A stretch of DNA of 61,153 nucleotides, filler included, from Hausera hauseri (GCA_046269625.1; 10 parts of 10 records of this genome joined end to end with filler, not necessarily neighbours in it), one strand, 5' to 3'. Counted from the whole stretch's first letter, positions 1,149-31,657 are shown. Notes: generated by a model not told the origin, from the sequence alone. Program-made: numbers and translations.

Positions 1149-1153
1149 TAAAA

Positions 1154-2352: not shown

Positions 2353-3234
2353 TTACCTCCCCTCTAAGGAGTAAATTTAGGTATACACTTATGCTGTATA
2401 ACAGTTCCTCGTTGTACTAAGTTCAAGACTGTATAATTTTACATGTGCATATTACCTTTACAATTTATATTTTTTTTTTGAGACTTTCATAAGATATATT
2501 TTTGACATTATTTTTAAACATTTTATGACATATTTGTTTACATATTATGATCATTCATTCATTATATTATATTAGTATCATATCATGGCATAATTTTAAC
2601 ATCTGTTGAACATGTTCATTACATACATTTTTCATTAAATTTAACATCATTTTCAAATTATCTCAACATTACATTCACATTCCACACACAATGCATTCAA
2701 AGAAATGTTTTCAAAATGAGGCGTGATGTCGTTTAATACATCTTGTTTTCCTCTATTTTTTTTGCAATATCCCAAACCAATTAAACCTCTATTAAAAAGT
2801 ACCAGCCCTTAAAATAGAAATACAATGATGCTATGGCCATTTCACATCAATGCATAAAGAGAAAAAAAAATTTGGGAGAAAGCAAAATGTTTTTAAATTT
2901 TATCCTTTATGAAATAGCATTGGTGAAAAAAATGCTGTGAAATGTATTTTTATTTGAAGATGTTATTTGTTTCTTTTATTTTTCCTTATTTATCTTTTAT
3001 TTCGACATTATTTATTTCATTCAATCTTTTATTTATTTTCTTCATTATTTTTCTTATTTATTTTTCACATATTTATTTTATTTATCAACATTTATTTTAT
3101 TCTTTTTATTTAACATTCATTATCTTATTTTTTGCTTTTTAATTGTTATTTTCTTTCAAAATTCTCATCTATATTGTCACATTTATCATACATCTATTTA
3201 TCTTTTCTTTTATCTTTCGTGTTTTGCTTTCTTT

Positions 3235-6200: not shown

Positions 6201-7071
6201 GGAAGTGAAATTCAAATTTTTTAGCCAAAGGAGTAAATAAAATAGTAGAATTATTAGGAATATTGTTTGGTATTTGTAATTGAATAATACTAAAAGAATT
6301 AGGTTGAATAGTTACATTATGTGTAACTTTAGCTATTGGTTGAGGAGTCGTAGTGGGAACAGTTGTTGGAAGTGGTGCTTGAATGGCAGAGTTTTGCACA
6401 TTTTGAGAGGGAGATGATTCCTGATATTCAAACGTGAAAGAGTCTACAATTAATTTATTGTTTTTGGTGTCAATTAAAACTTTATTTCTTTGTAGAAAGT
6501 CATACCCAAGAATGATTTGGTATTGGGATTGCCAGTTGTGCTGTGTCACAAAAAATTGGTTCTCAAACCATCTAGTATGAATTTTGAATTTGAGATTGAC
6601 TGCAGAATGATATGGTATTGTTGATTTATTTAGGGTATGAATGGTGACTGATCGAGATATGTAATTTATTTTAGTAGTATCTTTGATTTGTTCAAGAATA
6701 CTAGGTTGGATAAGGCTCAGATTAGCACCTGTGTCTAAAAGGGCGGGTATATTGTGATTGCCAAATTTTAACATTATTATAGGTAAAGAATTATTTGAAT
6801 TGTGACATGACATAAGGTGGAGCGATTCTGTTTTATTTGCATGATCTTTTTTATTTGACTCTTGATGTTGGTAGTCTTTTTCTCTAATTTTATTTTTTTT
6901 ATCATATTTATTAGAGTAGTCTTTTTTTTGCTTGTCATTATAAGATTTTCTACTTAAATATTTATACTCTTCTTTTTCTTTTAAAGATGGTAAATTTGGA
7001 TTTCGAAATGGTTTATGGGTGCTTGATGAGTGAAATCCAGTATAGTTATATGATGTACAAACACCCTCCAT
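3235..7071 (-). CDS. pol: Ty3/Gypsy Pol polyprotein (PR-RT-RNase H-integrase), intact 1278 aa
   Basis: Protease LLDTGA. RT FRMVVDYRLLN, LDLKSAFFQI, YFVDD. RNase H CDAS..ISGIL..RELFAI..TDAKPL. Integrase HHCC, IDIVGKLP, SDNG, SNGLLER, C-terminal DGPW. Confidence 0.95.
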   Translation of the reverse strand: MEGVCTSYNYTGFHSSSTHKPFRNPNLPSLKEKEEYKYLSRKSYNDKQKKDYSNKYDKKNKIREKDYQHQESNKKDHANKTESLHLMSCHNSNNSLPIIMLKFGNHNIPALLDTGANLSLIQPSILEQIKDTTKINYISRSVTIHTLNKSTIPYHSAVNLKFKIHTRWFENQFFVTQHNWQSQYQIILGYDFLQRNKVLIDTKNNKLIVDSFTFEYQESSPSQNVQNSAIQAPLPTTVPTTTPQPIAKVTHNVTIQPNSFSIIQLQIPNNIPNNSTILFTPLAKKFEFHFHSSIHTVQANTFYTIVENNSNININLRKNTRLGIVQQYDQQDQMIPPKQDFLQINNLNLSDIIKLRKDELSPTDFDLKHLSNKDQTSLLHMLLDNSQVFSKSYKSLGSTDAIIPQIQLLHNFPIQTKPYPIPKIAKEFAKQEITQLLDAGIIEPSTSNYSFPILFVKKKPLPNQSPKDLKFRMVVDYRLLNSIMEPFKICLPNISDILQNISGKNFYSVLDLKSAFFQIQLRECDKHKLAFCCEFGNYHPNRLFFGAKNSTAYFHTLIAKCMNDLKGKNVQYFVDDIIVAADSIEEMTNILQQVFDKLKQFNLTLDPKKLQLCKQQITYLGFNVNKNGFAPSEENINKVQKFPKPKTVKQVQTFVGMLNYFRHMVPNYADVVHPIVNLTRKNVPFYWNADCQIAFEKIQDLLLNKPTLKNFQEDKPLFLVCDASHIAISGILMQKHNEQFFPIEFFSKQLSPAEARYPSIRRELFAIFASCRHFHDKLYGKKFTIFTDAKPLTFHIQLAKQPDIVARWLLYLQQFDYTTQHIPGCKNPADFLSRMPNNNLNLNTINLFESDNALTILNIEKHQLQDENIQKIRQQIQNKTLPSKTNKYFIDSHTNLVMQQYINTSKKTKNKILSNKILIPPTLVNACLKAAHIPHFGTHKTYQFLHAKYTWKGMYLDTKNFCDTCKQCMEHKTKSNNILPKQISKQHLAPGEFVAIDIVGKLPRSHDGKFFILTIVDHYSRFLEAIPLANTTSNIIIQQLKIYFSTFGIPKIILSDNGPNFTSQIIETFFKDLNIQHRLTSVYHPASNGLLERIHRTMKGSISAITDNVIRWTDALLIFKLHYNNSKHLVTQFSPAELFFGRPINMPLNSTENPVYVEQFDEYRKKINELALERQQAITENESKYFAAQSSYLKGKSPKKLQLNDKVYIEIFQHPGTFQKKYDGPWTITKIFRNENYLLEKEENDTILTKKLHISKLFLLKPTRPNLQNTTIQSKTKK

Positions 7072-7080
7072 TAGTTTAAA
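7017..7080 (-). promoter_or_regulatory. -1 programmed ribosomal frameshift signal (gag/pol)
   Basis: Slippery heptamer T TTA AAC (7080-7074), a 7-nt spacer, then a 9-bp stem GGGTGTTTG/CAAGCACCC. pol is in the -1 frame. Confidence 0.75.
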
Positions 7081-7160
7081 TTTGAGTTTTTTCTGTAATA
7101 TTTATTATAATAAGGTCTAGATTGGTAGTTGTGCTGAAAATTCATTCCTCTTCTTAAACC
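7071..7160 (-). pseudogene. gag: Truncated 3' tail of gag (RGLRRGMNFQHNYQSRPYYNKYYRKNSNLN*)
   Basis: A basic N/Y-rich tail ends in TTTAAAC-TAA, overlapping the pol frame at -1. Upstream, the sequence switches abruptly to unrelated GC-richer DNA. Confidence 0.6.
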
Positions 7161-7250
7161 TCTAGTGCGAGGAAGGACTCGCTCTCCTCCATCTGCTCTG
7201 GTTGTCTGTCTGTATTGATTGACTGCTAACATCCGTTGTTTGACTTTCAG

Positions 7251-7343
7251 AGAGGAGGAGAGAAAGGAGAAGCCCGGGGTCGCATTTGGCGAGACCTGGC
7301 TGTTCTTTGGTTGTCGCCACCGAGACAAAGACTACCTGTTCAG
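7251..7343 (+). CDS. MTRR: Single 93-nt internal exon of a diflavin reductase, most like methionine synthase reductase
   Basis: tttcag acceptor with a gctaac branch point and an AG|gtaagc donor. It encodes EEERKEKPGVAFGETWLFFGCRHRDKDYLFR, containing the LFFGCR NADPH-domain motif. Confidence 0.8.
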
Positions 7344-7461
7344 GTAAGCTGAATATACCCAACATATTGTGTGTTAGTTAGCTTCTCCGTCTGGTCACAT
7401 ACGTGCAGCTGTTGTTTGAAATCTGTTTCTTCCACCTCAATTATTCTGAAGGTTTACTTAG

Positions 7462-7755
7462 ATGTATGTGGATGGATTTGATGAAAACCTTCTTTTGTAC
7501 AAAGGTCTAGGAGCGGCTTTTTTATTTATGAAAAGATTGCAGCATATCGCAAATGCGCTTCAAAATGTGAAATCACAACATATAGTTATTTCGTTATCTG
7601 AAAAAGCTGAATGGAAAAATACCACAAATTGTTATTTATGCAGTAATAGCTTTACTTTTGATAATCACAAAGTCAAGAATCACTGTCATATCACAGGCTA
7701 TTTCAGAGGAGCTGCTTGCAATTCATGCAATTTACGATGTCGAACAATCAACTTT
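7462..7755 (+). mobile_element. Fragment of a Polinton/Maverick-type protein-primed PolB region with endonuclease-VII-like Zn motif, truncated by the contig end
   Basis: YKGLGAA..CYLC..KVKNHCHITGYFRGAACNSCNL matches the C..C..kVrDHcH.TGkyRGaAh..CNL pattern. Confidence 0.75.
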
Positions 7756-7855
7756 NNNNNNNNNNNNNNNNNNNNNNNNNNNNNNNNNNNNNNNNNNNNT
7801 TAATTAATTAANNNNNNNNNNNNNNNNNNNNNNNNNNNNNNNNNNNNNNNNNNNN
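7756..7855. other. Artificial contig linker N44-TTAATTAATTAA-N44. Identical linkers at 17151-17250, 21801-21900, 26374-26473, 31775-31874, 42935-43034, 47616-47715, 52038-52137, 56183-56282. A 10-N gap is at 27546-27555.
   Basis: The same 100-bp N-flanked 12-mer, with stops in all six frames, occurs nine times. Confidence 0.99.
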
Positions 7856-7879
7856 GTTTTCATCACCCCGCCATTATCT

Positions 7880-7983
7880 GCTCTACTCCCATTCGCCAGT
7901 TTCCCTTTCCACGATGACGTGTTCTCCTCCCATTGGCTTCCTGCCTTCCTGGAGGGGGGGGTTGGCGCGAAGTCCTTACATCC
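7880..7983 (+). repeat. GC-rich interspersed repeat, likely an LTR 3' part; second copy at 26474-26573
   Basis: About 100 bp aligns by eye at roughly 80% identity (GCTCTACTCCCATT..CGATGACGTGTT..ATTGGCTTCCT..G-run..AAGTCCT). Both copies are at contig starts. Confidence 0.8.
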
Positions 7984-8398
7984 TACTACTGATGTAAATC
8001 AAACTAAAACAACCCAGCTTTACAAAAAGAAAACTCATCGAGACTGCGAACACCAATTCAAACCGAGAAAATTAGAATATCGCCAAGTAAACCAAAGGAG
8101 CAATTAACGGAAGTACATGTATTACGAAAGAAGGGTTCCGCAGACAACATACAGTTCACCACCGCCAGGGAATACCCCAGAATATTGGTAGCTACTGAAT
8201 ATTATAGTCAGCAAAAGGATCAAGGAAGCAATGTTTTTCGTCAAGTTGATGCCCGCAAAGGAAGTATGAGAATACGTACGTCTGGGAAAATCCAAAGCTT
8301 GGGAAATATGTTGCCCCAATATTACAATCAGAAAGGAATGGTAAACTCGTAGTCCCTATGGACAAGTCCGTAAGATATCACTTAAGAAACAATATTAG

Positions 8399-8995
8399 AA
8401 ATACCGATCGACTGGTGAAATTCCCGATTTAGATCGAGATGTCATCAGCGATTGGACCTTAGTGCCCGTGGGATGTGATCCCAAGAAGAGTTCAATAAAC
8501 ATGAAACAAAAAAGAGTATATGGTTATCTATACCAAGATGAAGAAGGACTAGCGATAGAACCCATTGAAATAACAATAAGAGTCGATTTGGACGACGAAA
8601 ACTGGGAAAAAGAAGAAAATGAATGCCCGGTGTGTGAGGCCAATTTAAAATAAGGTTATGTAGTTCTAGATAACTTGGATTGTGGACACAAGTACTGTCG
8701 AGATTGTCCAGAGAAATGGACGTTAGAAAACGGTAAAACCACGTGTCCTGTGTGTAGAGCAGAAGCGACGGACTTGAAGAATTACTCAAATGGCAATTAT
8801 ACCACAGTGGCCAGAATAAAGCCTCAGTTTACTTACGAGTTGGAGACAAACCCTAGAGAAAATCAAGCCGGTTCAAGTTTGGTACCTAGCTTAAGGCAGC
8901 GTATGGATTTATTACGGACAGACCATTTAAGGGTCACCTCTCCTGACACAATAGGCACATCCGAGGATGCCGCTCAGGGAGGAGAAATGTTGTGA
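8399..8995 (+). pseudogene. C3HC4 RING-finger ORF at the 3' end of an LTR element, one in-frame stop (8651-8653)
   Basis: ORFs 8462-8653 and 8675-8995 share a frame: CPVC-x14-CGHKYCRDC-x12-CPVCR. The ORF crosses the PPT and stops 8 nt into the LTR. Confidence 0.85.
8976..8987 (+). promoter_or_regulatory. Polypurine tract
   Basis: AGGGAGGAGAAA lies immediately before the TGTT that starts the LTR. Confidence 0.8.
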
Positions 8996-9734
8996 ATTAC
9001 TGGTAATAAAAGAGTGGTGGCATATTCCCTCGTTAATTAAAGTGACAAATGGTGGAGGTAATAAAAAGAGAGAAGCGACCTTCGATTATTGTAAATATAT
9101 AGCATTAATAAATTCATTAACTGTAAATACGCAGAAATAATAACTATTGTGTAGGAATGTTTATTGATAGTTAATAGCTAGAGTTGGTAATAAATTGTAT
9201 GTGTATCAATAACTCTCTGAAAGTGAAATGAAAAGAGAATTAAATCTAGTAGCGAGTGCTATAGAAAGACTATATATATTCAAGAGAATCAGACAAAAGC
9301 AGAACAGAGGAAACAAGAAAAGTGAGTCGAGAATTCTAAATCATCAGAAAACGAGAAACAGCCATTATATTGATCTTATTGATTCTTGGTGACGAGGTTG
9401 TATTTATTGTGGTAAAGATAATAAATGTTACTTTTAATTTCTTTTGCTTCTAAACTCAATATAGTTTTCCCTTCGCTTTTTAAAAGCGATTTGACTTCAT
9501 TAGGATTAAACTCTAGACTTAAACTATATAGATAAGAGGAAGAATTGAATAACGTGACGCAAGCATTTGCATTCAGTACCGGCAATAGTGTTCTAAAAGA
9601 AATTATATATAAGTTAGTCACAGACAGTCTATTCGAGAACGATAGACCGTACCTGCATATAACTCAAAAATAAATTTACTAAAACTATTGTTATATAGAG
9701 GGAGTTTGTGTAATTGCCACCCCAATATATAACA
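8988..9734 (+). repeat. LTR (747 bp) of the gag-env element
   Basis: TGTT...AACA termini between a PPT and a PBS. The 3' third is homologous to the two solo LTRs on C8. Confidence 0.88.
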
Positions 9735-9736
9735 TT

Positions 9737-9754
9737 TGGCGACCATCGCAGGAC
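9737..9754 (+). promoter_or_regulatory. Primer-binding site, tRNA-Arg(TCG)-type
   Basis: TGGCGACCATCGCAGGAC lies 2 nt after the LTR end. The pattern TGGCGACC..CAGGA is complementary to the metazoan tRNA-Arg(TCG) 3' end. Confidence 0.8.
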
Positions 9755-10086
9755 AGTTTGTAAATCGCTAGACTTTACTGTTGAGAGTTAAATACATACC
9801 GGTGAACAGCGCCACTTACACCGAACAATTTTGATATAGTTGGAAAAGAAAATTAAAATTGAGTACATAGGATATTTAACGGGGATAAATAACGTTAAAA
9901 TTGAGAACAAATATTGATAAGTCAAAGGTAAACCCTGTATTAAAGGATAATTCACCCATACGTCAAACACGTAGAAATATATACAGAGGCACACAAAAAT
10001 TAGATAAACGTTCAAATTCAGAGAACAGAATTGAGTTAGACGTCATCGAGCAAAACAAGCAATTTAGAATCCCACTTGAGAAGTAA

Positions 10087-13000
10087 GAAATCAATAAAGC
10101 AAATTTAGAGATAAATTACGCAACTAATATTGCAGCAGATAACCCACCAGTAGCGAAGAAACTAGACATTTTTACCTTTGATTCTCTGAATCTGCCATCA
10201 TATGATGGTGACCCGGACGGGCTTAATGAATTTTTGAGAACTTATAAGTTACACGCAGAAGGTGTCAGTCTCACCCTTGAAGTAATGATTAAACGCTTGT
10301 CATTATATTTGAAAAATTTAGCCGCTGACGCTTATAGTGAGCTCACTAATGATGAGAAGAAATCTTGGTCTTCCCTGGTAGCAGCATTAAACCGTAAATT
10401 ATTTCCGACAGTAACGCCACAACAGAAGCTTATGGCATTTCAAAATAGAGTGCAACAAAAGGGAGAATCGGTAACCCAATTTGCATTTGCATTAAAGAAA
10501 CTTGCTAATAGTTATGTAAGTACTTTGAGAATAACTAATGTAGCAAAAGCTAAAACAGACGCAGAACGCGATGCTGCGGAAAAGTCAACCCCGCCAGAAT
10601 TAGACGTCTTGATGTCAACTCAATTAATTAATGGTATTTGGTCCCGAGATTTAGTTAAACAGTTGATTTTGGCCAGACCTGAGAATTTCAAGAAAACTCT
10701 GCAATTGGCTCAAGACTTAGAAATGGCACTCGATAGATATGCCAGACACAACAATAGAAATGATAGAAATAATGATCGAAACGACCGCAATGACAGAAAT
10801 CGGAATGACAATCGTGGAAGAGATGATAGACGATTTAATGAAAAAAGAAATAGTAATAATGACTACAGGAGTAGTCAAAATAATAGTTATGCTAATGGCC
10901 GAAATATGAACAAGTCAAATTCCAATTCGAATAGAAATCAAAGAAACTACAAAAGTTCTAACTATTCAAATCGTGATGATGATAATCGAAATAATGATAG
11001 TCGAAGAAACGCAGATAGTACACAAAGTTTGCCAAACCAGTATAATAGAGGCATAAGTAGGTCTAAGTTACCTGTAAATGAAGATGGACGACAGAGAGTC
11101 GGCAGAAATGGAAATTTAGTTTGTTTTACTTGCGGTAAAGAAGGGCATATTGCAAAGTCATGTCCAAATCCGCGTAGTGTTTCATTTACTGTGCCCAATA
11201 AGATTAGTATGATTAAAGTTAATGAAAACTTAGAAGCAAAATATGGCGTTCGTGGAGATACAGGCACTATCATCGATATACAAGATTTAAGAAAATTCTT
11301 AGATGCTCAGCCAACTACTGCGAACTTACAAATTTTAATGGCCAGAAGAGAGTACGCGGATAAGTTGAGGTTACTAGAAGTATATCATGGCTTAGCCGAG
11401 CCAGAGACCGAATACGAATGCTCTATAGCACCGAAACAAAGTGATATGACACGGAAGAAGAGTGTTCCAACGAACATTAACCCATCTGATAAACCAGGCA
11501 CATCGACGGCGGTCGACTTAGACGAAGAACCTGAGTTTGCAGTTGAAAAAGTAACTAAGCTTACTGAAGATGATGCAGCAGAAAAAGAATTTATGGAGCC
11601 ATTAATACTGAAAATTACAAAAAATAGAGGCCGTAGCCCTTCACTAAAAACCAAGCGCAGAAGTCGTTCACGTTCCAGAATAACCAGAGAGAAAATTGAA
11701 GAAAAGGAAAACCCGAATGTCGATACACCAGAAATTGGGCCATATACACCTGTAGGAGTAGTGGAGCCGATAGAGTCAATTAATGAAATTAACGAAATCT
11801 GCCCACTTCCCATTAGTGAGGAAGAAACGGCAGACAATGACGATTTCAATTCAAAAAAGTGGAAAATCCGACGCTCATGGAAAAACGCCGACGAATTAAA
11901 GAAAATGAGAATTTATTGTTTAGAGCCCGAAATATTACAACGAAACTTAGAGAAACTCAAGCAGATTAGTGAACAAGTCGACATATCCGGGAAAGAACAG
12001 CAATACGCCGAGAAGTTATATAAAAGCTTGAAATTACGTAGCGAAGGGAAGTTCGTTGAAGCAATCGATGTGAGGCAGCCTGAAGAGGTGTCCCCGGAAA
12101 TATTATTAAAATGGAAACACGAATTGGAATCGTGGATTAAAAGTGGAGTCGAGTTTGTAGAAGGATGGAATAAGAACAAAGATAGAATTGACGTAAAAGT
12201 CACTGAGGCTCAAACGCTATTATCTACTCTAGAAGAGAACCCAAAACTGAAGAGAGTAGTCCGTAACTTAGAACGTATCATGAACGAAATTCGGTATGCA
12301 ATGATTAAACACCTTAGAGAAAAATCAGTTAACCACCGCAGTAATATCGATTTGGAAATATTGGGTATAGACCCGTTGGATGTTCCTCCCCTAACGGAGA
12401 TGATAAAAATCGCATTCGCTACGCCCAAACAATATACAAACCTGGAAAATCGGCTGAAGATAGAAAATGAGAAGCGAGCACAAATTTTTAGCTTGAGGAA
12501 CCGGATCATGTTCCCAAACCACGAGGATACTCAGTATACAATTAAGGCTTGTATCGTGGAATTAGACGAGTATAGGGATGAAATTAATTATATCGGTCGA
12601 ATCATGAATTTTCTAAAAGGACCAGACGATGAGTTAGAAGATGCCTATAAGATGCTAGATAGAGCCATAATGGCAAAACCTGTAATTACAAAGCAATTGA
12701 CGGAATGGTCCGAGTTAGTAACGCGACTAACCAAATTGGTAGAAGATCGTAAAGCGGAATTCCCGCAAAGCGATCCAACGGTGAAAAAGCAACTAGAGGA
12801 AAGTGCCCACGATTTGGCCACGTTGCGAATAGAAATAAATATCCGTACTCAATTTGAAGCGCTACGACAACTAAAATTTATGGAAAAGGAACGAGAAGTG
12901 TCGACGATGGAGGTAATCTACAAATTGATCGAAGAGACGAATTTTACGGAGAAACGGAGTATGATTTACGATGTAAATTCAAAGTTAAGGGTTGTCCGGC

Positions 13001-17250: not shown

Positions 17251-20200
17251 TAAGATCTTTGCTCACTGTGGCCGAGGACTCCACGGCACTGAAAAGTTAG
17301 CCGAACTGGCAGACAAAGCTTATGAAATGCTGCACTCACACACAGCACCAACTGTTTCTGAGACATTAACAACAAACCACTAACAGCAAAATGCATTGAT
17401 GCAGCAACAAATTGCGCAATTACGCACAAACAATGAAATTTTGCAAAGAACAATTAATAACATAAACGAGAAATTAAATGAGTTAACGCTGCCTCGAAGA
17501 GGTTTTTCTAGGGCTGCTTTCCCTAATGTATTTTATCAACGACAAAGACGGTCGCCTTCGCCCGCGCGGTCGTCTATTTGTTACTATCACGACAAATTTG
17601 GTAACAATGCTCAGAAATGCTGAATCGGTTGTAAATTTTACTCTACCGATTTTAATACAAATAACATCGCTTGCATCTATCACGCAAAATTTGGAACAAA
17701 AGCACAAAAATGCCTACCTTGCTGTAACTACAACACGCACAATAAAATCAACACTACTAAAGTCACACAAAATAGCAGGCCAAACTCACCAGCTACGAAA
17801 AACTGATTTCGCCGCTAGGACACACGGCAAGTTCTAGCAAAGGCTACAACCTGCAAAAAATAGCCGACACATTTCCTTTGCTGGATTCACGTTGGAAGCA
17901 GAAGTCGTCACTCCAACAAAGCAAAACATTAATTTTCTCATAGACACTGGCGCAACAATCTTTTTACTGCCAACAACACAGCACATCCAAAACAATTTCA
18001 CTTCAAAAAAGCAATTGTTCACTGCGTCCGGTGAACCTTTACAAATTTTTGGTGTTACCAAATTAACTTTTACACTTCCAAATTTCCCAAACGCATTCAC
18101 TTGGAAATTTACAGTAGCCAATGTACGCACACCTATATTGGGTTTAGACTTTTTGTCCCACTATAATTTGCTTGTAGACTGAAAGCGATGCTTCTTAAAG
18201 AGTGGAAATAATTTTAATCAAATTAGCAGCATTTCGGTGACAACCCGGGCGATCGTTTCCAGCAAGTCAAAACAAAAGGATAGAACTTCCGATTTAAATT
18301 ATTTTTATAATCATCCATTATATAGAAAATTTTCTTAAGGCAACAAATACGATATTGCCAACTGCATGACACCAATTACTGATAATACAGATGCCAATAC
18401 CATCTTCAACACGAACATTCTGCACCTAATACCATCTAGTCACAACACCTGGTCTACAAGTCATACCCTCAACTGCATCTAGTCACAATGCGTCGACACC
18501 ATCTGAAAACTTCTCATCGTTGCTCTCTGACTTACAGCAATATATTTCGTCTTCCTGCACACGTCTGTTGCAAAAGGACAAATCATTCGTACCACCTCAA
18601 TCCACCTTTCATCACATAGTAACAGCACATCAAAGACCATTTCGTCAAAAGGTCCGCCCGCTATCGCCTCACCGCAGACAGGCAGTGGAGGCTGAGTTTC
18701 TCGAACTGGAAAAATCAGGAATAAACAGAAGATCCAAATCCACTTGGTCTTCACCACTACGTGTGGTTCCAAAAAAAGATGGTACCTTTTGCCCATGCGG
18801 TGATTACCTCCAACTCAACATCATAACAACAATGGATGACTACCCTCTACTATTAATCAACGATGTCCTTCACAGGCTCCATGGTTAGACCATTTTTTCC
18901 TGCATTAATTTACACAAAGCATACCACCAAATTCCGATGGCCCCAGCAGAGATTCCGAAAACGACTGTCATTACACCTTTCGACACTTTCGAATACCTTT
19001 TTATGCTCTTTGGACTCCGTAGCGCTTCCCAGACCTTCCAAAGGCATATTGATACAGTTTTCTCAGGTTTAGACTTTGCTTATCCCTATATCGATGATAT
19101 CCTCATTACATAATCTTCCTCGAAACAACACTCCGAGCACTTACGTTTAATCTTCCAGAGCTTGCACCAAAACAACTTGAAAAATAATTTCTACAAATGC
19201 TCTTTTCTTCAACATAAGGTAAACTTCCTAGGACATGTTATCAGCTCCTCCGGATATTCACCTCAGCCAGACCGCATCGCAAAGCTCAAAAACATACAGC
19301 TACCACGTACATCAACAGAGATGCATTCTTTCCTCGGAACCTTGCACTTTATTCATAAGTATATTCCACCCTGCTCCACTCTAACCGCTCCATTTGCATC
19401 ACTAAGCTCTGGCAAGAAAAAACAACCTATTCAGTGGACCGCCAAGCTAGTCAACGCTTTCGATCACCTTAAAGATAATCTAAAAACCGTTGAAATCCTG
19501 TCCTATCCCAACTCCCATGAAGAACTCTTCTTAATCACGGATGCATCCACAACAGCTGCAGGTGCTGTCCTCCATCAAGTCAAAAATGGATCCCATAAGC
19601 CATTAAAATTCTTTTCTCGAAAATTCACGGCACAGGAACAAAGATATTCCACCTTTGACAGAGAGTTGCTTGCAATGGTCCTTGCCGTAAAACACTTTAA
19701 GCATCTGCTAACCGCACGAACCTTTACAGTACAAACGGACCGCAAGCCCTTGCTTCAAATTCTCACCATGAAATCGCCTTCTCCACGTCAGGAGAGGCAA
19801 ATATCGTATTTGTCTACATTTAATTTTAAAACTGAGCACCTAAACGGAGTCGACAATTTAGTAGCTGACTTTTTGTCCCGATCAGTCAGATCGACTGATT
19901 TTACACAAATTTTTCCTCAATCCAAACTTCAACAAAACCAGCCACCTACTGGCATCCTTAGATCTTTTAAATCGTGCAAAACCATCGACGGTGTGGCCCT
20001 TGACACCTCCAAACCTAATAATCCTAAAGTCATCCTTTCTGAATCGCTTCAAAAAGAAGCATTCACAGCATCCATTTGTTGCACTATCCTGGTGCCAAGG
20101 CCACTTTTCGACTCTTACAACGCCAAGTAGTATGGCCATCGATGCGCTCTGACGTGCAGGTTTGGGTTAGGCAGTGTGTGACATGCCAAAAATACAAAGT

Positions 20201-21800
20201 TACTAAGCACTTAAAGCAACCACTATATCATTTTCCCTGCACGTCTAGTTTTGAATCTGTTCACATTGACCTTGTAGGCCCACTAGCCTTAGACAACGGC
20301 CATCAGTTCATCCTCACAATGATGGACCGTTCCTCGCGATGGCCAGAGGCTGTCCAGCTTCGCAGCACCAACACAGAAACAATCGCAGACGTTTTCATCC
20401 GCACTTGGATCAACAGGTTTGTATCACCTCGCAACATCATTTTGGACCAAGGCCCACAGTTCGAATCCAACCTGTTTAAAACTCTTGTCAATTAGTTGGG
20501 AATTAATCACATTCACACGTCACCCTATCATCCTCAATCGAATGGCCTTCTCGAACGCTTTCACCGAACGATGAAAACGTTTCTCAAAATACTTGCTGAG
20601 TTCAATCTCAGTTAGACTATACTCCTTCCGTACGTTCTGATTGGCTGGCGGAACACACCATCTACTTCTACAGGCTGTTCACCTGCAGAAGCATTTTTGG
20701 CACTTCTATCAGATCATTATTCGAGCTGGCTGAGTTGGACTATATTTCTACAGACGAAACTATACAAGCGGCACAGAGACACTTCGTTGCGATCAGCAAA
20801 CACTCATTTTGTAGACTATTACACGGAAATAAACCCTACATAGCCGGCGATTTATATACTGCCAAGTTCGTCTTGCTAAAGAATCAGACGCCGTGTGGTT
20901 TTCAACCTCAGTATGTTGGCCCTTACAAAGTAATTCGTTTACACTCTCAAAACATCATCATTCTCAATGACGACGAAGAAGTAACAGTCCACGTCAACAA
21001 CGCTAAGCCGGCTTTCTTTATTGACGATACGTCTACAATCGAAACCACTTCACCAACATCTTTACACGACGCGCAGCAATACAACAATTCACCCTCCATC
21101 TCTGCTCAATTATTTAACCCACTTTCGTCTACGTTTTCTCCCAAAATTTCTACTTCAATTTTTTCTTACAGGTCATCTTTTTTTCCATCCGATTTTGCAC
21201 CTTCACGCCTTTTCACACCGCTTTCATCCACTGATAACAACCTGCTTTCTCCTCTTACAATACCTCCTCCATCAGACACCACTTCAACTTCACCAATTTT
21301 TCCATCCACCCCTTTTATCATTCCAGCCTCTTGCATACCACCTTCCAACTACTTTCCTTCGCCTTCACCATCTTTTTGCTCTCTTCCGTTTTTTATCACC
21401 TTTTAAACACCTTTTATCATTCCTTTGTCTTCTAACACTCTCTTGAATACCTTTAATCATCCGTCTTCAACTATCTCTCTTCCTCCTTCACCTTATTCTT
21501 CTCTTCTTTCTGATTTATCTTTGCATGACACAACACTTACCGCGAAATTTGACAATTTTTCCCCAATTTCAAACTCTGCAAGCAAACACAGCAAAAAGAC
21601 AAAACATGCAGTCACATTCAGCAAGTATAGCAGGGAAAAGTCAGTAGAAGACACCCAACGTCTTGTCCAAACTAAGACCGACTGACATACACTTTTTTGT
21701 TTAGCGCTTGTTTTTTTCCGTTTGTCTTAATCTTTATAGTATTCACTTTGCCACGGGGGGCTGACGTGGTGCTCGCAGCTGCTGGTGCCCTTTGGCCCAT
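17251..21800 (+). mobile_element. Degenerate Ty3/Gypsy element, probably CsRn1/Kabuki lineage: gag tail, PR, RT, RH, IN, PPT, start of 3' LTR at ~21765
   Basis: CHCC-type knuckle CYYHDKFGNNAQKC*IGC, FLIDTGA, PCGDY, YIDDIL, TDAS..FDRELLA, HIDLVGPL..DQGPQFES, VGPY. Many stops and frameshifts. A G-run PPT precedes (c)GTGGTG. Confidence 0.9.
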
Positions 21801-21900: not shown

Positions 21901-24168
21901 ACTAAAGAACTGGATATAATTATCCAACCAACGAGTCATTCATTAGTTATTACAGTGCCTGACCTGAAGAACACAAACATAAAATTTGAGTGCCATCTCA
22001 ACCATAAAGTGATTAGTGAAGGAGTTCTAACTCCTGAAGAACCAACATCCGCATGCATGTTTCTAAAAGCCGACACAAACTATAAAGTCATCATAATAGA
22101 ATTAGATGATGAAGGAGAAAAGTTAAGAACGGTTTTTCGTACAGAAAAGACTTTAAAACAAACAATAACCACCCCAAAAATTATACGAAGAGTGACGGTG
22201 CAGGAGCCAGAACAAACTTCTAATAAAAACCTTTGGATAATTAGTGTATTATGTGTCTTCTTAATATTACTAGCTATACTTCTACCTTTAGCAATTTACC
22301 GTTCAAAAATGAAGCAACGACGGCGTAAAATTAGGGAAATGTTAAATCAGTTAAAAATGTTAAGGAAAGACTCCCAAGAATCGTTAGTAGACATAAGTGC
22401 GCTTTTTTCACAAAAACAACGGCAAGTTGAAGAACTTACCGATCTGGAGCGGCAAATTCAACCGCTTAAAAGTAGGCAAGCCGAAAAGCTTGCCGACCAA
22501 AAGCGGCTAGTACAACCGCTAAAATATGAACAAACTGAGGAATTTCCAAATGAAGAGTGGCAATCCCGACCGCTTAAAACTATAACCATGTATTTATGCA
22601 CAAAAATTCAGGACCAGGCCGCAAGATTTTTAGCGACCTATATTTATAGACAGTCAAAATACAAAGATATTATTATATGTAGAAAATTTTGGCCGCTGTT
22701 GATATTAATTTTTTTAGTCGGCGAAGGATCCGAACAGGCCCAGCGACCGAACAGTTTTTACCACAATATTGTTGCCAATCTACTGGCGTCCAGCAAAAAT
22801 TATGTTTACTATAAACAAGCCCATATGATACCGAATCATCTAAAAGGACACACTATAAATCAAAGAAGTGGCCTTATAATCAAGTTACAAACACATTCTA
22901 CTAAATTATCCGATTTGATCGATCTTACAAGTAAAGCCATGGCCATTTACATTTCAGTATCGAAAGGAACAATTCAATTAAAAAGCAAAGTTCTCCCTAA
23001 CGGAATCACAGATATAATTAACATTCCATCCCCAACCACGATTAGATTGGACGACAAATTCTTCAAAAATGTAGAAATAACTATCAGAATCATGAATGAA
23101 ATTCATCCAATCTTATATATCGAAGTTATCAAACAAGAAAATATCTTCCATAATGAATTAAAACAATTCAATTACCCAATACCAATTCCTAATGACTCTT
23201 TATTAGAAAAAGGTGTATCATTCGCAAGATCAACTCAAATACGGAAAGAAGATATAGTAATTGTGACTACTAACTCTGCGTATGTCATGCAACCAGTCCG
23301 CAAGATGGAAGTAACACTGATAGAAGTAACCATTATGGATTTAGATGGTAAAATCGTTTTCGATAAAATATTATGTCCACGTGACAGAATAGATAATTAC
23401 AATAGTCACGTAACCGGCCTAAGAGAACCGGACATAATAGGACAAATAGATCTCTTACAAACTTATCCTTTGATCAAAACTCATCTTACTGGAAAAATTA
23501 TCGTTGGAATGAATGTATTTTATACTCTTAATTACATTCTTAGATGTAGTCATCATTTGGTCTTGGGTATACGAGATTTACTCTATCATGAGAAGGCCAA
23601 TCCGAAACAAGAATTTAATCCTAAATATATCTTAACTGCATTCAATAATGGCGTCTATCCTCAAAGAACAAAAGCCAAAGCGAAATCAATGTTGGACATA
23701 TATAATTCAATTCCAGAATATAAAAATGAAAACTTAATGGACAAACTATCCCCAACAGATATCCACATAACCGATATTGAAACTAAAGAAAATCCAGAGA
23801 AAACAAGAGATTCTGCAAGTAACAAACTCTCCCAGGCGTCCTCAATAGAAAATAACGAAGTAAAGGAAATAGTATTATCGTTAACGAAGGAACCTAAGAA
23901 ATTGAAACAGAAACAATCTGATCTGATGGATTTATCAACTCAAATTATGATCGATTTAACAAAAAATACCAGAAAGTCAATCTCGTCTAAAGAAACAATC
24001 ACCCTAAAACGGAAGATTAAAGAAGAAGACCAATGGTTAGAAATAGATGCAGTACGATACCGACGTCCCGATGGAACCTACAAAATTTACCCTCTGAAGC
24101 CGAGGACGGCTTCATCTAAGGAGGGAGGTGTCGAACATGTGAACCCAACAAGTGGACTAAACATGTAA
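21901..24168 (+). CDS. 3'-terminal ORF of an LTR element, 5'-truncated: FN3-like domain, TM helix, coiled coil, second hydrophobic segment, degenerate DEDDh (REXO4/ISG20-like) exonuclease domain
   Basis: The frame is open from the contig start. TSHSLVITV...LKADTNYKVII; TM LWIISVLCVFLILLAILLPLAIY followed by RSKMKQRRRK; VTIMDLDGKIVFDKILCP..IDNYNSHVTGL..LTGKIIVG..IRDL. The ORF runs through the PPT into the LTR. Confidence 0.75.
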   Translation, partial: TKELDIIIQPTSHSLVITVPDLKNTNIKFECHLNHKVISEGVLTPEEPTSACMFLKADTNYKVIIIELDDEGEKLRTVFRTEKTLKQTITTPKIIRRVTVQEPEQTSNKNLWIISVLCVFLILLAILLPLAIYRSKMKQRRRKIREMLNQLKMLRKDSQESLVDISALFSQKQRQVEELTDLERQIQPLKSRQAEKLADQKRLVQPLKYEQTEEFPNEEWQSRPLKTITMYLCTKIQDQAARFLATYIYRQSKYKDIIICRKFWPLLILIFLVGEGSEQAQRPNSFYHNIVANLLASSKNYVYYKQAHMIPNHLKGHTINQRSGLIIKLQTHSTKLSDLIDLTSKAMAIYISVSKGTIQLKSKVLPNGITDIINIPSPTTIRLDDKFFKNVEITIRIMNEIHPILYIEVIKQENIFHNELKQFNYPIPIPNDSLLEKGVSFARSTQIRKEDIVIVTTNSAYVMQPVRKMEVTLIEVTIMDLDGKIVFDKILCPRDRIDNYNSHVTGLREPDIIGQIDLLQTYPLIKTHLTGKIIVGMNVFYTLNYILRCSHHLVLGIRDLLYHEKANPKQEFNPKYILTAFNNGVYPQRTKAKAKSMLDIYNSIPEYKNENLMDKLSPTDIHITDIETKENPEKTRDSASNKLSQASSIENNEVKEIVLSLTKEPKKLKQKQSDLMDLSTQIMIDLTKNTRKSISSKETITLKRKIKEEDQWLEIDAVRYRRPDGTYKIYPLKPRTASSKEGGVEHVNPTSGLNM

Positions 24169-24859
24169 ATAATTTGTCGAACTGACCGATATTGTCGAAT
24201 CGATTGATAAACTGCTGTGAACTAATTGTTAAATTGTTAAATCGGTTGATAAATTTAAAAACAAAATTAAAATTAACTTTTGTTATTGTTTTCGGTTAAA
24301 TTTTCATTCTCATCCAATTATCTTGTTATTTTGAAAACCGAGTGTCAATTTCTTACATTTTTATGTAGAAAAGGGGTATATAAACCCCAACATTTTGCTA
24401 TAAAAACACACGCAAATTCTTCCCATGTCTACGCATGTTTTTCATGGTTGTAAGCGTATTTTTTTTATTAATTTATTGTCATTTTTAATTTTTATTAGAC
24501 AATATTAAAGTATTATTGATTTCATCTTTTTTTATTATACGTATAAAGAAATTAACCTTTGATAGTAAGTTTAAGTAATTATAAAATTAAGGTCCCTTTT
24601 TCTCAGCGTCCATAAAGCCGCTGATTTTAAACTCATTATAAATAAGGGAGAGACCGCCAGTATTGCCTCCTGGCGTCGTACTCACACATTAGGATCAACT
24701 AAAAATCATAAATAAGTCATAGCAATCCACAGATTGCTACTCCAGAAACAAAGTAAAGATAAGTTTGAGGTGTATTAACCCAAACTCGTAATTGATTGAT
24801 CTTAGGCTTGGTGAGTAAAATCTCCAAGCCAACTTGTAATAACCTTAAACTTATCAACA
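24129..24859 (+). repeat. 3' LTR (~731 bp) preceded by PPT AAGGAGGGAGG (24118-24128)
   Basis: TGTCGA...TCAACA near-inverted termini, an internal TATATAAA box, and a length similar to the other LTRs (711-747 bp). Confidence 0.7.
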
Positions 24860-25415: not shown

Positions 25416-25826
25416 TCAACCTCTGCCGCTGACCTCTACGTAGGCGTCTTGAACTTTGACACTTATTTCTTCCTTAAACGATTTAAATCTTTCGACATAT
25501 TCTTGTAATTCTCCGGCACAACTTTTCAATTTTTCAATTTTCACCTCTGCAGAAAGTTCTGCAGATAATTTTATTTCTTCTACTTTCAACAAGATTGTTT
25601 CGATTCCCTTCAAAATGCCTTTTAACTTTAAGCTAACTTCATTACAATCAATTCGTCGAAGAAGTAAAGCTTTGACTTTGACCTCGACATCTGCATTGAT
25701 CTCCAAATTCAAAAGGTCTTTCACTAAGCTAAACTTAACATCAAGGTTAGCGCTACCACCTATTCCGGATCCCGACACGCCAAATGAATAAATTATTGGT
25801 ATCAATAAGATTGAAAGAAAAATCAT
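25416..25826 (-). CDS. Small putative secreted helical protein (136 aa), function unknown
   Basis: N-terminal hydrophobic signal MIFLSILLIPIIYSFG, an amphipathic L/I/V/K/E pattern, 2 Cys, and TATAAA ~35-40 nt upstream. It is more GC-rich than its flanks. Confidence 0.6.
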   Translation of the reverse strand: MIFLSILLIPIIYSFGVSGSGIGGSANLDVKFSLVKDLLNLEINADVEVKVKALLLRRIDCNEVSLKLKGILKGIETILLKVEEIKLSAELSAEVKIEKLKSCAGELQEYVERFKSFKEEISVKVQDAYVEVSGRG

Positions 25827-27712
25827 TTCAAATGATTAAAATGACACGAAACGCTTTTTAATTTATACCATTGCCACATTCAAAAGTTGTTTCAACACTT
25901 CATTTTGAAGTTAAACCTTATTTCACGTGCGCAACAATCGATAATATTTGTTTGACAATTTCAAACATTAAACAACATTAAAGTGGGACAAACAAGGAAA
26001 AACATAATAAATCTATAAGTTCTCTTTTGGAGACAACCTGTGGGCAGACTGATATTTCAATATCTTAAGCTTGCAGCACTCAGTTTAAGGGACCGTTTCA
26101 TACATAAGTATATTCAAAATCAGCAGTCATTGATGTTAAATGTTTTTAGGATGCTTTGGCATAAAATCAGTGATTTCTGCCTTGTGTTTGCTTCTATATT
26201 CAGACTTGATTAGTCTCACTGCAAATATACAAACACACTAGAACTGAGTTTTATCATAATCTTTAAGTAAAAACCCACCTTTTGTTTTAAGATAAATGTA
26301 AAATATTTACAATAACAAGATGAAATATATTGTTTAAAACAATATATTGTTCAAAACAGAATTAACATAATCANNNNNNNNNNNNNNNNNNNNNNNNNNN
26401 NNNNNNNNNNNNNNNNNTTAATTAATTAANNNNNNNNNNNNNNNNNNNNNNNNNNNNNNNNNNNNNNNNNNNNGCTCTACTCCCATTGGTCACTTTTCCT
26501 TCCCTCGATGACGTGTTTCCTCCGATTGGCTTCCTTCTTTCCCTGGGGGGGTTGGTGCCAAGTCCTCACTTCCATCTACTTACATTTTTTTGTGATTTCA
26601 ATTTTGCAATTCAGACAAATTATCATAACAATGTGAATATTTGTGTATAAGTAATAAATTCTTGCACATATCTGTCTTCTTGTTTTTGATTATGTTAAGC
26701 AAAGTAACCTATTAACTAAAATAATAATTAAATAATTAATATTCAAAAAAATTATTTTGTCTCCTCACTCATCAGACTTGCACCCCAGAATATTAGAATT
26801 ATTGGCCCTCCATTCACCAGATTTTCATCACAAGCACCCTAAAGAGAATAAATTATCGTATTACAAGTACCTTATTTAATATGAACTAAAATACAAATCA
26901 CTTAATTTAACTGATGACTAACCAGTCATAGAATTTGGGAATCTCAAATTCATAAATTCCGCAACTGCATTTTTACAAAATGCCAGTCATCGAAAATTAC
27001 TGGCATTTCGATCAAAAACCAAGTACCCCGATTTGGAGAAAAACTCGAAATCGCACACGGTTCGCACAACCCGTGTCACACTTTGCATGAATCAGAATCC
27101 CCATACAATCCGTGACATTTTCCAAATCCAAACCCATAATTCCCATAAGGACAGAAAATCTTCACGAATTGCCAATCAATAAGTATGAGTCAAAGCACGC
27201 GGTAGATTCTAAAAAATGTAAATGTAAATGCACAATTTTTTTAAATCCATCATGACTCAGAAAAAGGCGTCCAGAATTTTGAAAATTACAAAAGCCAATA
27301 CACTACTCGGGCAATGAGTTTTAAAAAAATCCAATTCTAAAATCACAATTCCCAGCCCCACGTACTTTCTATAACAAAGGCTGTTCTCCTAATTCAGTTT
27401 CACCAGATATTTACTAATAATAAAACTTTCTGACATGTTAATTCCAGATTTTATTACAATTTATACCATTTCCATATCTCAGTCAGATGTAAAAATATAA
27501 ATTATTACATGCCAACTGTGGTGCCCACCGCGGCTGGTGCCCTCTNNNNNNNNNNCCAGAACAGCAAATTCAGACGGAACTTAAAAAATTCAGTCAAACT
27601 CAACCGATGATTATGAACACTGAACAATATTTATTAGTGGTCCTAAAACATTAACAATAAAACCAATAATTTTGTTATCCGAAATATCACTGCAATCTGA
27701 ACCGACTATGAC

Positions 27713-27830: not shown

Positions 27831-28099
27831 AGACGATTTACCCACAGATGAATGAAGAAGAAAGTCTTTACGTTATTCCAAAATCTGTATTAATCGATTC
27901 AGTCACCTCACCTACGCAAAACTCTCAATCTCTTGTTATCCGTTATCAGAAACCCGACTCATTCATCAGACCCACCGACGAAATGCATTAAACCCGGTAA
28001 TAACTTTTAAGTATAAAACGGAGGTCCGAAAATGATGTTGGAGTAAGCAGATTTCCAAGTTGGTGTTGACACTGAAGAAAATGGGTAGAATACTCGAAT

Positions 28100-31000
28100 G
28101 TGTATTATTTACGGCTAGGCTGGCAAAATATGCCAATCCAGTCGTCAATTCCCTCGATAAATGGCGAGTATTCAGGTGACATCTGTTCAGAAAAACGTGT
28201 AATTGAAATATCACAATCGGCCTTTTTAGATATGTCTTATCAGAAAAGTGATTCTGTGATGCTTACTTGTCTTGCCAAGCAACAGTCTGAAGACCAAAAT
28301 CTAGACAAACTTATGTCGTCTTCTGTGATGGTTGATATTCCGATATCTAATACACATAAACAAAGTAACCAATCTCTGAAATCGAACGACGAAACACTGG
28401 AAAAAGCATCCATGCCAAGCGATTATGTGAAACCAATGACGACTCCAATCGTTGATGTTTCCAAAGCATCCGAGTCACATTTACATTCTGATACAACTGA
28501 ACAAGCAATCAGCGACGCAACAATGTACAGTTGTGCAGCTAATATTCATATTGAGGCGCAAAATCAAGAAAAGGCTGTTCCGGTATCATCTCTTATGCTG
28601 AATAATGTTTTTGTATCTGTTGAAAATCCGAGAAAATTCCAGCATCTAATCTTCAATATTGGTAATGAATACCGAAATGAGTCGATGTCTAAGGCCTCAA
28701 AGTCTTTAATTACTTGTGATAAAAATAAAAATTCGGAAACACCTATTCTGTGTGAAAGTGCCAAGGATGACTCGGAAACTCTGAATTTAATACCCGAACC
28801 TCAATCAGAAGAACAAAATGAGGAAAAAGCTGTTATTATTGATTCGTCCATAGATGATGTAGATTTACCTATTCGACATCGACTAAAAGGCATGCTTCCA
28901 GACACTGTTACTGAAGAAGAAAGTCTACAAGAATCTTATTCAAACAATATGAAATCATTTACGCAAAGTAACAGTACCGAACATACAGAAATGTTAATGC
29001 TGTGTGACATAAAAAGAAGTGAGTCTGATGCATTTAGTCTTATGGTCGAAAAGCCATCTGGTAAAGCTCTCACGGAAGAGGATTCTAGGTTAGAATTGGA
29101 ATTTATGGGTATACATAATGTTCCTGACAAATGTGATGACCGGGATCAGTTTATCGCCACAAATCTAAAGGTAGGATTATCTAAATCATCCATACGTAAT
29201 ACTAATATAAGAGACATATTAACAAAACCAGTTGTACAGATTACTAAAACGTCCCCACCAGAAACACATATTGATGTTACAGAGAATTCAATAGACGATT
29301 CAGAAACAGCTGGTTTACGTGATGAATTACTGACTGAAGCAAGTGATCGGCAAACAATAACTGTTGACCCTCCGTTGGTGAATTCCGACCAGGTTCGTGT
29401 CGAAAATCCAGAAATTAAACATTCGTCAAATTCAGAAATCAAAAGTTCAAAGATCTCTGTACCGGTTGTTGAAGTCCCCAAGGCTTTTCCATCAGATATA
29501 CGCAGTTTAACAGTTGACTCTGAAAATTGCGCAATGAGCAATTATGAGCAAGCTTATTATTCTAATCTGTTAGAAACTAATCCCGAAGTTGATCAAAGTA
29601 TTCAGTCGTCTAAAACTTGTCCACACGTTCATATATCAAAATTTCCTTCTTCAGAACTGTCTAACAATGATTATGTTGGGGATGATTCAAAAACACTTAG
29701 TTTTGTAGCTAATGTACAGACAAACGAACATAATCTAGATAAAGGCCCCAGTGTACAATCTGAAATTATGGATTGTATTAATCAACTCTCTGGAAATCAG
29801 GACAATGATCCGTCTCGAAATTCGGATGTAGACGTTGGCATGTCAGGATGTTCTCAATCGAAGCTTTTAAAACCTTCAAAATGTAATGAGAATACTAAAC
29901 GTTCAGGTAATCATATTAGTGAAGTGTCGAAAGTATCTTCAACTATTATTGGTGAAAATTTAAGAGATGATAAAAAAGAGTCTAAGTTGGCAATCGATAT
30001 ACAATCTAATGAACATAATCTGAGTGAGTGTAATATAATACAGCCGTCAATGTCGGATAGTATTCAAAAATATGTTGACATTGTACAAAAGAACCCATCT
30101 TTAAATTTAAATTTTGAAGAAGCGCCTTCAAAAAGTGCAAAGTATAAAGATTCACAACCTTCAGAAACTACTATTATTGAGTTAAGTAAAGAATTACCAC
30201 CGGAAATCGAAACTAAGGTTAGTGATACTGTAAAGAACGAGTCGAGTTTCATGGCTAAAGAAGGAAATCAGCAGCATATTGTTGGTAGCCGATTGAGTGA
30301 TGATGGTCAAAGTCAAGTAAATGACCAAACAAATTTGGATGATGGCAATGAAAAATCTGAAAAGTCTATATTACAAGCATCCGTAGAATCCGTCCCACGT
30401 TCCCAGTTAGAAATTGATGCTGATCTAACAATGAACGAATTCAAAGAATATTCAAAGACGTCTACGTTGACAGTTGAAGTACGATCAAAAGAATGTTATG
30501 AGGAGCCAAATCTTAAAATTAGTTCTAATATAACTGACGTGCCAAAGACACTTGATTATACAGCCGATGAAGAAAAGCAAATTGGTAGAACCCAGTTGTC
30601 GAAAGACATTCCAGCAAGTTTCAGTTCTGACAATGATAATTCTAAAAAGTTGCAATCCAAAGTTCCTCCGATAGAAGTAAGTGCTGATTTAACGTCAAGT
30701 AAATTTAAAGATTATTCAAAGACGTCTAGTCAAACGATTGAAGGGCAGGGTAAAATATGTAGTGAAGAGCAAAACCCTAGAATCGACGATAGTGCCATTT
30801 GTGAATCAAGAACATTTAATGACGACATTAGTGAAGGAAATCGACAGCAAAGTACCCACCAGATGACGAATGATGATCATAAAACTGTTGAAAATAAAGA
30901 AATATCCGAAACAAATCAGAATATTGGCAGTGATAACTCCGCAAAATCATTGGTAAAAGTTTCCAAGGAATCCAATCAAAGTAGCGATATTTCCCAGGTG

Positions 31001-31657
31001 GAAGTAAATACTGATATATCACGAGTGTTCAAAGAAAATTCACAAACGTCTACTATGACAATTGAAGCACAACCTGCAGTGTCTAGTGAAGAGAAAAACT
31101 TGACTGAAACATCCCAGCAGGATAAAGATACTTCCGAAGCTGTTAAAAGTAAAACAAATGATCCATATGTGTTGCAGAAACCGAAAACGTCTGATAAAGA
31201 TGAAAATGATATCAAGTCGGAATTAAATAGCTCTTTGAATAGTAAGGCGATTCAGTCTTTTACATTTTTAAGTGAAGACGAAAGCAAAATGACGAGTACA
31301 GTGAAGAATAATATGGCGGAACAAACTGAAACTTCCGACGCAGTTACATCGATTGTTGATTCAAATGATTCTTCACTGACAAAAGTAGAGTCTATTCCAA
31401 CGAGGCATTCAGATTATTCAGAAGACCTAAATTTTAAGCCTAAAAACTTTATTCCAAAAGTACCTTCTGATAATGTATATTATTTAACGTCTGTTCTTGT
31501 TCATTCCGGAAGTGCATATGGTGGTCATTATATTTGTTATAAAAAAACAGGTGGTCAGTGGTTTCTGACTAATGATTCATGGATTTCGCCAGTTTCATTC
31601 AAAGAGGTATTACGACATCAAGCCTATATATTATTTTATGAAAGGCTGAACGAATAA
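28100..31657 (+). CDS. Ubiquitin-specific protease (peptidase C19) C-terminal part with a very long S/E/D-rich repetitive insert; N-terminal Cys box not seen
   Basis: His box [40 protein letters not shown], and AATAAA at 31711. Confidence 0.8.

Follow-up and report, generated by a model that had tools for sequence, protein, structure and literature searches.

An AlkB-like barrel and an ISG20-like domain without catalytic residues, predicted in frame with a membrane anchor at the 3' end of an LTR element of Hausera hauseri

The open frame and the element that carries it

The window, that is, the whole stretch of DNA analysed (61,153 nucleotides), consists of ten unrelated contigs of one genome, that of Hausera hauseri, with N-spacers between them. 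The ORF under study forms the 5' half of contig 4 (21901-26373), and the pol fragments at 19114-21406 belong to another contig. The frame had been annotated as intact, and 754 codons indeed run without interruption from 21904 to 24168. It likely represents the 3' end of an element polyprotein running into an accessory protein. The following features were identified in and behind it.

21904..24168, + strand: open frame of 754 codons plus stop; 5' end open at the contig edge
21904..22170, + strand: FN3-like ectodomain module with two Cys (weak)
22231..22338, + strand: transmembrane (TM) helix (22231-22299, Kyte-Doolittle maximum 3.13) and basic inner flank
22441..22717, + strand: linker of 92 codons with three hairpin-like repeats and an ATG at 22588; open solely in the ORF frame
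22695..22717, + strand: candidate 3' splice acceptor (branch-point-like motif, T-tract, AG), phase 1 to the ORF
22720..23145, + strand: AlkB-like double-stranded beta-helix domain (predicted fold), no conserved HxD...H triad
23245..23727, + strand: ISG20/ISG20L2/REXO4-like DEDDh domain with 0/5 catalytic residues
23728..24165, + strand: low-complexity charged tail with a short terminal motif
24091..24128, + strand: pre-PPT hairpin (folding z -3.14) and polypurine tract (PPT, 24118-24128)
24129..24859, + strand: 3' LTR, 731 bp, TG...CA, with a TATA-like motif at 24376

A PPT followed by a TG...CA LTR in multi-copy sequence is the 3' end of an LTR retrotransposon. The PPT lies inside the open frame and the stop codon 38-40 nt within the LTR. 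Because the stop codon falls just within the LTR, we regard the ORF as cargo of the element, as had been proposed, and the multi-copy depth up to the LTR end agrees with this assignment. Contigs of run X1 had summed depths of 37-12,700 over the element bins vs. 7-14 across most of the flank past 24900, with a drop from 124 to 10 across 24900; summed contig depths are not copy numbers, but their contrast reveals a multi-copy element and places both ends of the LTR. Five X2 contigs diverge from the window directly after 24131. Joints such as 22882-23365 and 23426-24063 were not scored as deletions and are possibly diverged subfamilies. The TATA-like motif of the LTR is shared with the LTR region of L019, one of the related loci described below. 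Within the tail, a short Y/G motif lies near 24030-24100, before the PPT, and by eye similar C-termini were seen in the homologues P0001, P0006, P0012 and P0021. The summed contig depth was maximal in the bin that contains this motif (24030-24100).

The first module of the frame resembles the post-signal modules of the related loci L014 and L021. A profile built from the query module and six modules of L014 and L021 gave 11 PDB matches with E values of 0.003-1.2, all of which we take to be FN3-containing proteins. Compared with the six L014/L021 modules alone (hhalign), the query module gave an E value of 0.017 and a probability of 2.6%, and a Pfam search with it returned no match. An FN3 identity of this module is plausible from these comparisons. 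The TM with a basic inside flank was found where it had been annotated, at 22231-22299 followed by RSKMKQRRRKIR. The predicted topology is type I, with the C-terminus in the cytosol or the particle interior. Because the TM and its basic flank predict type I, a module appended behind them would lie on the cytosol or particle-interior side.

The barrel-exonuclease family

A DEDDh pattern whose catalytic acidic positions are replaced had been read in the C-terminal part of the frame, and both statements survived scrutiny. The query had no significant family in Pfam. A single-sequence phmmer search led to ISG20 with an E value of 0.0075, and the 29-row family profile, in which one cellular-looking row (P0024) is included, led to ISG20L2 with 3e-33. 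RNase_T matched 13 of the 29 aligned rows. An AF2 model computed with the family alignment had a pLDDT of 90.4 and a pTM of 0.86 (from the single sequence, the pLDDT of 36 was not usable). The C-terminal domain of the model matched ISG20 and ISG20L2 with Z of 17.7 and rmsd of 2.3-2.4 over 154-156 residues, a DnaQ-like fold nearest to these two proteins. At the five catalytic columns of alignment A1 the query has N, A, T, Q, and K. In place of the D-x-E of ExoI stand N (23272) and A (23278), in place of the acidic residue of ExoII stands T (23524), and in place of the H-x4-D of ExoIII stand Q (23662) and K (23677). As judged by eye, moving the ExoI register by two still gave no acidic residue. 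Judged by model and alignment, the query domain is not an active DEDDh family member, though it has the DEDDh fold.

Directly upstream of the exonuclease domain lies a second domain that the initial annotation overlooked. Residues 1-140 of the model matched AlkB (2fdk) with Z of 12.2 and rmsd of 3.0 over 137 aligned residues, and matched Ofd2 (Z 12.1) and ALKBH7 (Z 11.9); cupins match too. The predicted fold is a double-stranded beta-helix as in AlkB and the 2OG-Fe(II) dioxygenases, and kinship with another barrel family is possible. The iron triad of these enzymes is HxD/E...H. With the triad register placed by secondary structure, no H-x-D/E was found in the query segment, and it is present in 2 of the 29 rows. 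The sole conserved His column of the barrel (H79; 18 of 24 rows) has Ser in the query. Other conserved residues of the barrel are IPNxLK, R49, and E/D135 (25 of 25 rows). By the model, the barrel, being without the AlkB metal ligands, is a non-member of the active AlkB enzymes, though its fold is AlkB-like. The two folds were not found in one protein among solved structures.

A scan of 1.84 billion representative proteins yielded 28 homologues of 100-593 aa, the best of which was P0001 (E 4e-31, 34% identity). Each homologue had one matching stretch, from query residue 277 onward, and none of the 28 matched the FN3-TM part. Fourteen homologues carry all five DEDDh residues, 12 carry none, and two truncated ones carry one or two. 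One of the 14 complete-site proteins, P0024, looks cellular, and 13 two-domain or partial family members have the full active site. The active rows carry H-x4-D and are of the DEDDh type. Among the 12 dead homologues, one of which is truncated, seven keep Glu at the ExoIII Asp column. At least 90% of the rows share the family motifs PR, G283, RD, E236, and D244 (70% for the D of RD). The lone captured host nuclease of the initial annotation is thus replaced by a retroelement family with an AlkB-like barrel and an exonuclease domain and with active and dead members. Because half of the members are complete nucleases, the ancestral ligand of the family would likely be nucleic acid.

In the tree, from which P0019 (100 aa) was omitted, the query groups with P0001 as its sister (100/98); each of the two is catalytically dead and has a full-length frame. 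Their identity over the two domains is 32-36%; the 36% in the exonuclease domain is barely above that of the tail (31% of 64). Four further dead pairs have 34-71% identity in the exonuclease domain. The tree has two to three changes of catalytic state on long branches and is also compatible with a single loss. Among active relatives, dN/dS was 0.01-0.06 for the exonuclease domain and 0.03-0.34 for the barrel (6 of 10 pairs estimable in each case), with dS near saturation in these pairs. The pseudoenzyme of the query may well be under selection. The 13 family members found by a protein profile search all belong to the P0002 group. A word-index protein search found none at E 0.001 among 7885 candidates near the query length and no relative among 381 longer candidates, the latter being weak evidence against fused forms. 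Among viral contigs, 51 pattern matches contained 0 relatives.

The linker, the candidate acceptor and the loci of relatives

The hairpin-like repeats of the linker start at 22448, 22502, and about 22556, with a spacing of about 54 nt and a folding z of -3.27. An open linker of this length had a P of 0.0009 by shuffling, and the other two frames contain 7 and 8 stops. From 40 of 60 differences listed between copies, 18 fall in the linker and none of these creates a stop (about 1 expected); 7 of the 18 are synonymous and 11 are not, which is neutral-like at the protein level. No indel was listed among 79 contigs over the linker. One copy has an in-frame loss of 108 nt. Another copy, of low depth (3.3), has a stop directly after 22443 and is shorter by 110 nt on balance. 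One contig, accounting for 19% of the depth, is without the ATG at 22588. Differences listed in the FN3/stalk region were synonymous in 11 of 17 cases (expected share 0.34), mostly in one haplotype and with little weight, and those listed in 22718-22900 (4 synonymous and 6 not, n=10) were close to the neutral expectation.

The acceptor-like tract, which the initial annotation also overlooked, ends at 22717, where the homology to the family begins. Contig depth rises from 121-248 over 22568-22681 to 746-1488 over 22682-22738. The T-tract and AG bases at 22695-22717 also encode a second hydrophobic stretch, FWPLLILIFLV, whose Kyte-Doolittle score (near 22670-22720) is only 1.85. The acceptor of the window has no ATG downstream, so that a spliced product would need a start codon in an upstream phase-1 exon. 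A flatworm-type spliced leader ends in AUG. Such a leader joined at 22717 was ruled out, since it would be out of frame and the acceptor needs a phase-1 donor. As read from the sequence, two products are possible, a spliced accessory protein and a read-through membrane fusion.

A metagenome scan (262 pattern matches) gave 21 loci of relatives from two assemblies, some of them duplicates. The ExoI D-x-E is present in 17 of 17 loci checked, and the scan pattern itself demanded D-x-E. In L021, a frame of at least 3219 aa encodes a Monjiviricetes-type fusion protein, protease-like domains, a signal/FN3-like/TM cassette, PR, RT, RH, and IN, and after IN another signal, two FN3-like modules and a TM, followed by a stop. 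The barrel-exonuclease ORF lies about 340 nt beyond this stop. In L021:1-9657, the segment between env and the true protease is enlarged by two protease-like domains and a further signal/FN3-like/TM cassette.

In four of the four distinct loci with a visible upstream TM protein (L002, L011, L014, and L021), this protein stops before the exonuclease ORF. The linker before that ORF is about 255-340 nt long in L002, L011, and L021, and L014 has small ORFs in between. Hairpin-like repeated units occur in the linkers of L021 and L011 with weak folding z (-1.57 and 0.26). A join of the FN3-TM part to the exonuclease is not the state of the family, as none of the 28 homologues and none of these four loci has it. 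The query linker, moreover, carries signals of a non-coding look, and the fusion protein is a candidate product. In L002:3-1679, a protease is directly followed by a signal, an ectodomain and a TM, without RT or IN, and the exonuclease ORF is next; L002 is possibly a non-autonomous derivative, judging from this gene order.

The exonuclease ORFs of the relatives are preceded by acceptor motifs. A T-rich AG lies within 6 nt of the start ATG at 14 of 19 loci vs. 15 of 498 internal ATGs; the motif set was chosen post hoc, and the loci, from two assemblies with duplicates, are not independent. The motif was also seen by eye in front of 12 of 13 accessory ORFs of other kinds. L017:1-6727 holds a seven-ORF array with three RING ORFs and a TRAF ORF ahead of the exonuclease ORF, and L020:54-4652 holds a five-ORF array with one RING and one TRAF ORF. 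These arrays encode RING, TRAF2/3-like, small coiled-coil, and barrel-exonuclease proteins, and most of the ORFs start right after a T-rich AG. This arrangement points to production of the accessory ORFs of the relatives from spliced subgenomic RNAs. Spliced RNAs are known for the gypsy-type element Cer1, according to the part of PMC3315495 consulted. L019 has an LTR, a PBS-like site and gag behind the exonuclease ORF.

Membership of the element in one family with those of contigs 2 and 10, as proposed earlier, fits via L021 and these two contigs, and it is seen through relatives only. Contig 10 has 40% identity to L021 over 1259 residues (pol), and contig 2 has 29% over 626 residues. A gB-type env in frame upstream of pol is present in L021 and contig 10, and contig 4 does not contain this part of an element. 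Contig 10 (56283-61153, - strand) has a 1623-codon open frame with a fusion-glycoprotein C-terminus, PR, RT, RH, IN, and a post-IN signal-like stretch; the segment at its edge resembles the start of the first module of the query, with no overlap in DNA. In contig 2 (8300-9000), a broken RING-finger ORF crosses the PPT into an LTR of about 747 bp (about 8988-9734), behind which lie a PBS-like site and then gag; the arrangement is tandem, and the same pre-PPT slot holds other cargo. The RING of contig 2 matches that of L017 with an E value of 0.004.

Function of the in-frame module and comparison with known elements

We postulate, with a probability of about 0.45, that the locus belongs to a multi-copy element, likely of the GAG-ENV-POL type, whose non-catalytic accessory protein binds RNA ends, is produced by splicing and is here also tethered by read-through. 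The AlkB-like barrel and the ISG20-like fold, both without catalytic residues, would bind RNA ends rather than cut them. The module would normally be made from a spliced subgenomic RNA via the acceptor at 22717. In the query subfamily the linker is open, and translation of unspliced RNA would place the module behind the FN3-TM anchor, on its cytosolic side. The tethered module might then be placed at budding membranes or inside particles, where it may hold or shield the RNA of the element from host 3'-5' exonucleases. We favour a non-catalytic RNA-end binder because the ancestral ligand is likely nucleic acid and because deeply diverged pairs of dead members still have intact frames. Maelstrom and EXD1 are precedents, being catalytically dead DEDD proteins that retain RNA binding, as described in the available part of PMC5408684.

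The join itself could be incidental. The pseudoenzyme would then be a separate spliced accessory protein in a subfamily that merely lacks the polyprotein stop, and the fusion would be a by-product. This account, which we rate as somewhat unlikely, draws on the FN3-TM part being unmatched in 28 of 28 homologues, on the four loci in which the frame stops past the TM tail and a linker or small ORFs are next, on the repeat units (weak in z) also seen in the L021 and L011 linkers, on the acceptor-like tract exactly at the start of homology, and on the copy with a stop after 22443 and the neutral-like linker differences. However, 92 open codons (P 0.0009) beside frames with 7 and 8 stops are not what a by-product would predict, and the frame is preserved by the 54-nt repeat spacing and by the 108-nt loss, with no indels listed. 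In addition, accessory domains of Burro elements alternate between a separate ORF and the polyprotein, as the available text of PMC6431247 describes.

The dead domains may instead serve as a protein-binding adaptor, or as a decoy that acts in a dominant-negative way on host defence or on the ubiquitin machinery, rather than as an RNA binder. RING and TRAF accessory ORFs adjoin the exonuclease ORF in L017 and L020, the RING remnant of contig 2 occupies the same pre-PPT place, and host DEDDh nucleases restrict retroelements (PMC10123124, as far as its consulted part goes). The 13 family members with a full active site argue against this role, since they make nucleic acid the likely ancestral ligand, and we consider it improbable.

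It is very improbable that the second hydrophobic stretch functions as an internal signal or membrane anchor, used by read-through or from a start at ATG 22588, which would leave the module separately anchored or exported. Internal signal-like stretches similar to RKFWPLLILIFLVGEG occur in contig 10 and L021, and the sister P0001 also starts with a hydrophobic stretch. But the score is only 1.85 and the stretch is a translated T-tract plus AG; that of P0001 ends in IQM, like the acceptor-plus-ATG read-throughs in L007, L009, L010, and L012; and ATG 22588 is missing in 19% of the depth (one contig). ISG20-like and AlkB-like folds are, moreover, of cytosolic or nuclear types. The long branches of the tree would suit an accessory nuclease that was once active and is now decaying without function, or a host gene that ends in an LTR unrelated to it, but either is hardly probable given the intact 754-codon frame with a high-confidence predicted fold, the dead sister at 34% identity, the multi-copy depth to the LTR end with the PPT inside the frame, and the same exonuclease family behind pol in L021.

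Returning to the tethered RNA-end binder, a broader picture can be drawn, which we regard as doubtful. An enveloped invertebrate retroelement lineage might be built like a complex retrovirus, with an env-pol that carries FN3-TM and a spliced accessory array (RING, TRAF, and barrel/ISG20-like proteins, active and dead). The doubly dead form, tethered to the particle membrane by read-through, would be a packaged RNA-end shield or a decoy against host ISG20/REXO4-type nucleases. Vertebrate retroviruses are well known to carry accessory genes for counter-defence, but few have been described in invertebrate gypsy-type elements. In this family one accessory protein exists in nature in active and in dead form, so that cutting and binding can be compared directly. 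It also appears to record the shift of a cargo gene from a separate, probably spliced ORF to one in frame with a membrane anchor.

Several parts of this arrangement are already known, each in other LTR elements: exonuclease cargo, env upstream of pol, RING/TRAF cargo, and AlkB capture, as far as the consulted parts of the sources cited here describe them. The Juno and Vesta LTR retrotransposons of bdelloid rotifers carry a DEDDy exonuclease as ORF3 (PMC5408684). Similar to the query, this is a DEDD-fold 3'-5' exonuclease in an extra ORF 3' of pol, but in the text available it is RNase D-like (DEDDy) with intact catalytic residues, and no TM or AlkB-like domain is described there. The query is of the DEDDh ISG20/REXO4-like type, has two domains and is in frame with a TM, and its family is both active and dead. 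Cellular ISG20/ISG20L2/REXO4 and the AlkB-family dioxygenases have the same two folds, whereas the query has neither catalytic set. In orchid Ty3/gypsy elements, an AlkB domain has been captured that is, by the title of PMC9289625, recent and a functional m6A demethylase; the query barrel is, by comparison, highly diverged, without the triad and joined to a nuclease fold.

GAG-ENV-POL errantiviruses with an HSV/gB-type env have been described in nematodes, bryozoans, and flatworms (Chary and Hayashi, PMC13524379). Like contigs 2 and 10 and L021, they have a class III-type fusion protein upstream of pol. The main text of that paper does not mention 'exonuclease', 'fibronectin', 'splice' or 'accessory', and no description of post-IN FN3-TM modules or 3' accessory arrays was found in what it makes available. 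The giant Burro/GYPSM1 gypsy elements of planarians have env in frame between gag and pol (PMC6431247, consulted part). Like the relatives here, Burro has RING and MATH/TRAF cargo, with accessory domains separate or in the polyprotein. It is longer than 30 kb and has BIR, BCL2, ankyrin, and dUTPase as cargo, and no exonuclease or AlkB-like domain is listed for it in the portion consulted. Burro LTRs add several kb, in contrast to the 731-bp LTR of the query element, whose cargo stands just before the PPT. BIR, BCL2, and ankyrin cargo was not seen in 19 partial ORFs of the relatives that were scanned; RING and TRAF were seen in L017 and L020. In searches of the openly readable literature, no paper on an AlkB-like/ISG20-like accessory protein in such elements came up, and within the same scope no active and dead forms, acceptor-fronted accessory array or in-frame TM link; related elements may be present in the supplements of PMC13524379, in Repbase or in subscription papers.

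Other features of the window were recorded. A 139-codon frame at 25416-25835 (- strand), hydrophobic at its start and located in the low-depth LTR flank, is possibly an exon of a host secreted protein. The end of the contig (26341-26373) is a short repeat with a summed depth of 27,000 in X1 and a 25-nt inverted match. A 1193-codon frame at 28076-31657 has a partial UCH domain at its end, and a POP1-like gene lies in two long frames at 53627-55755.
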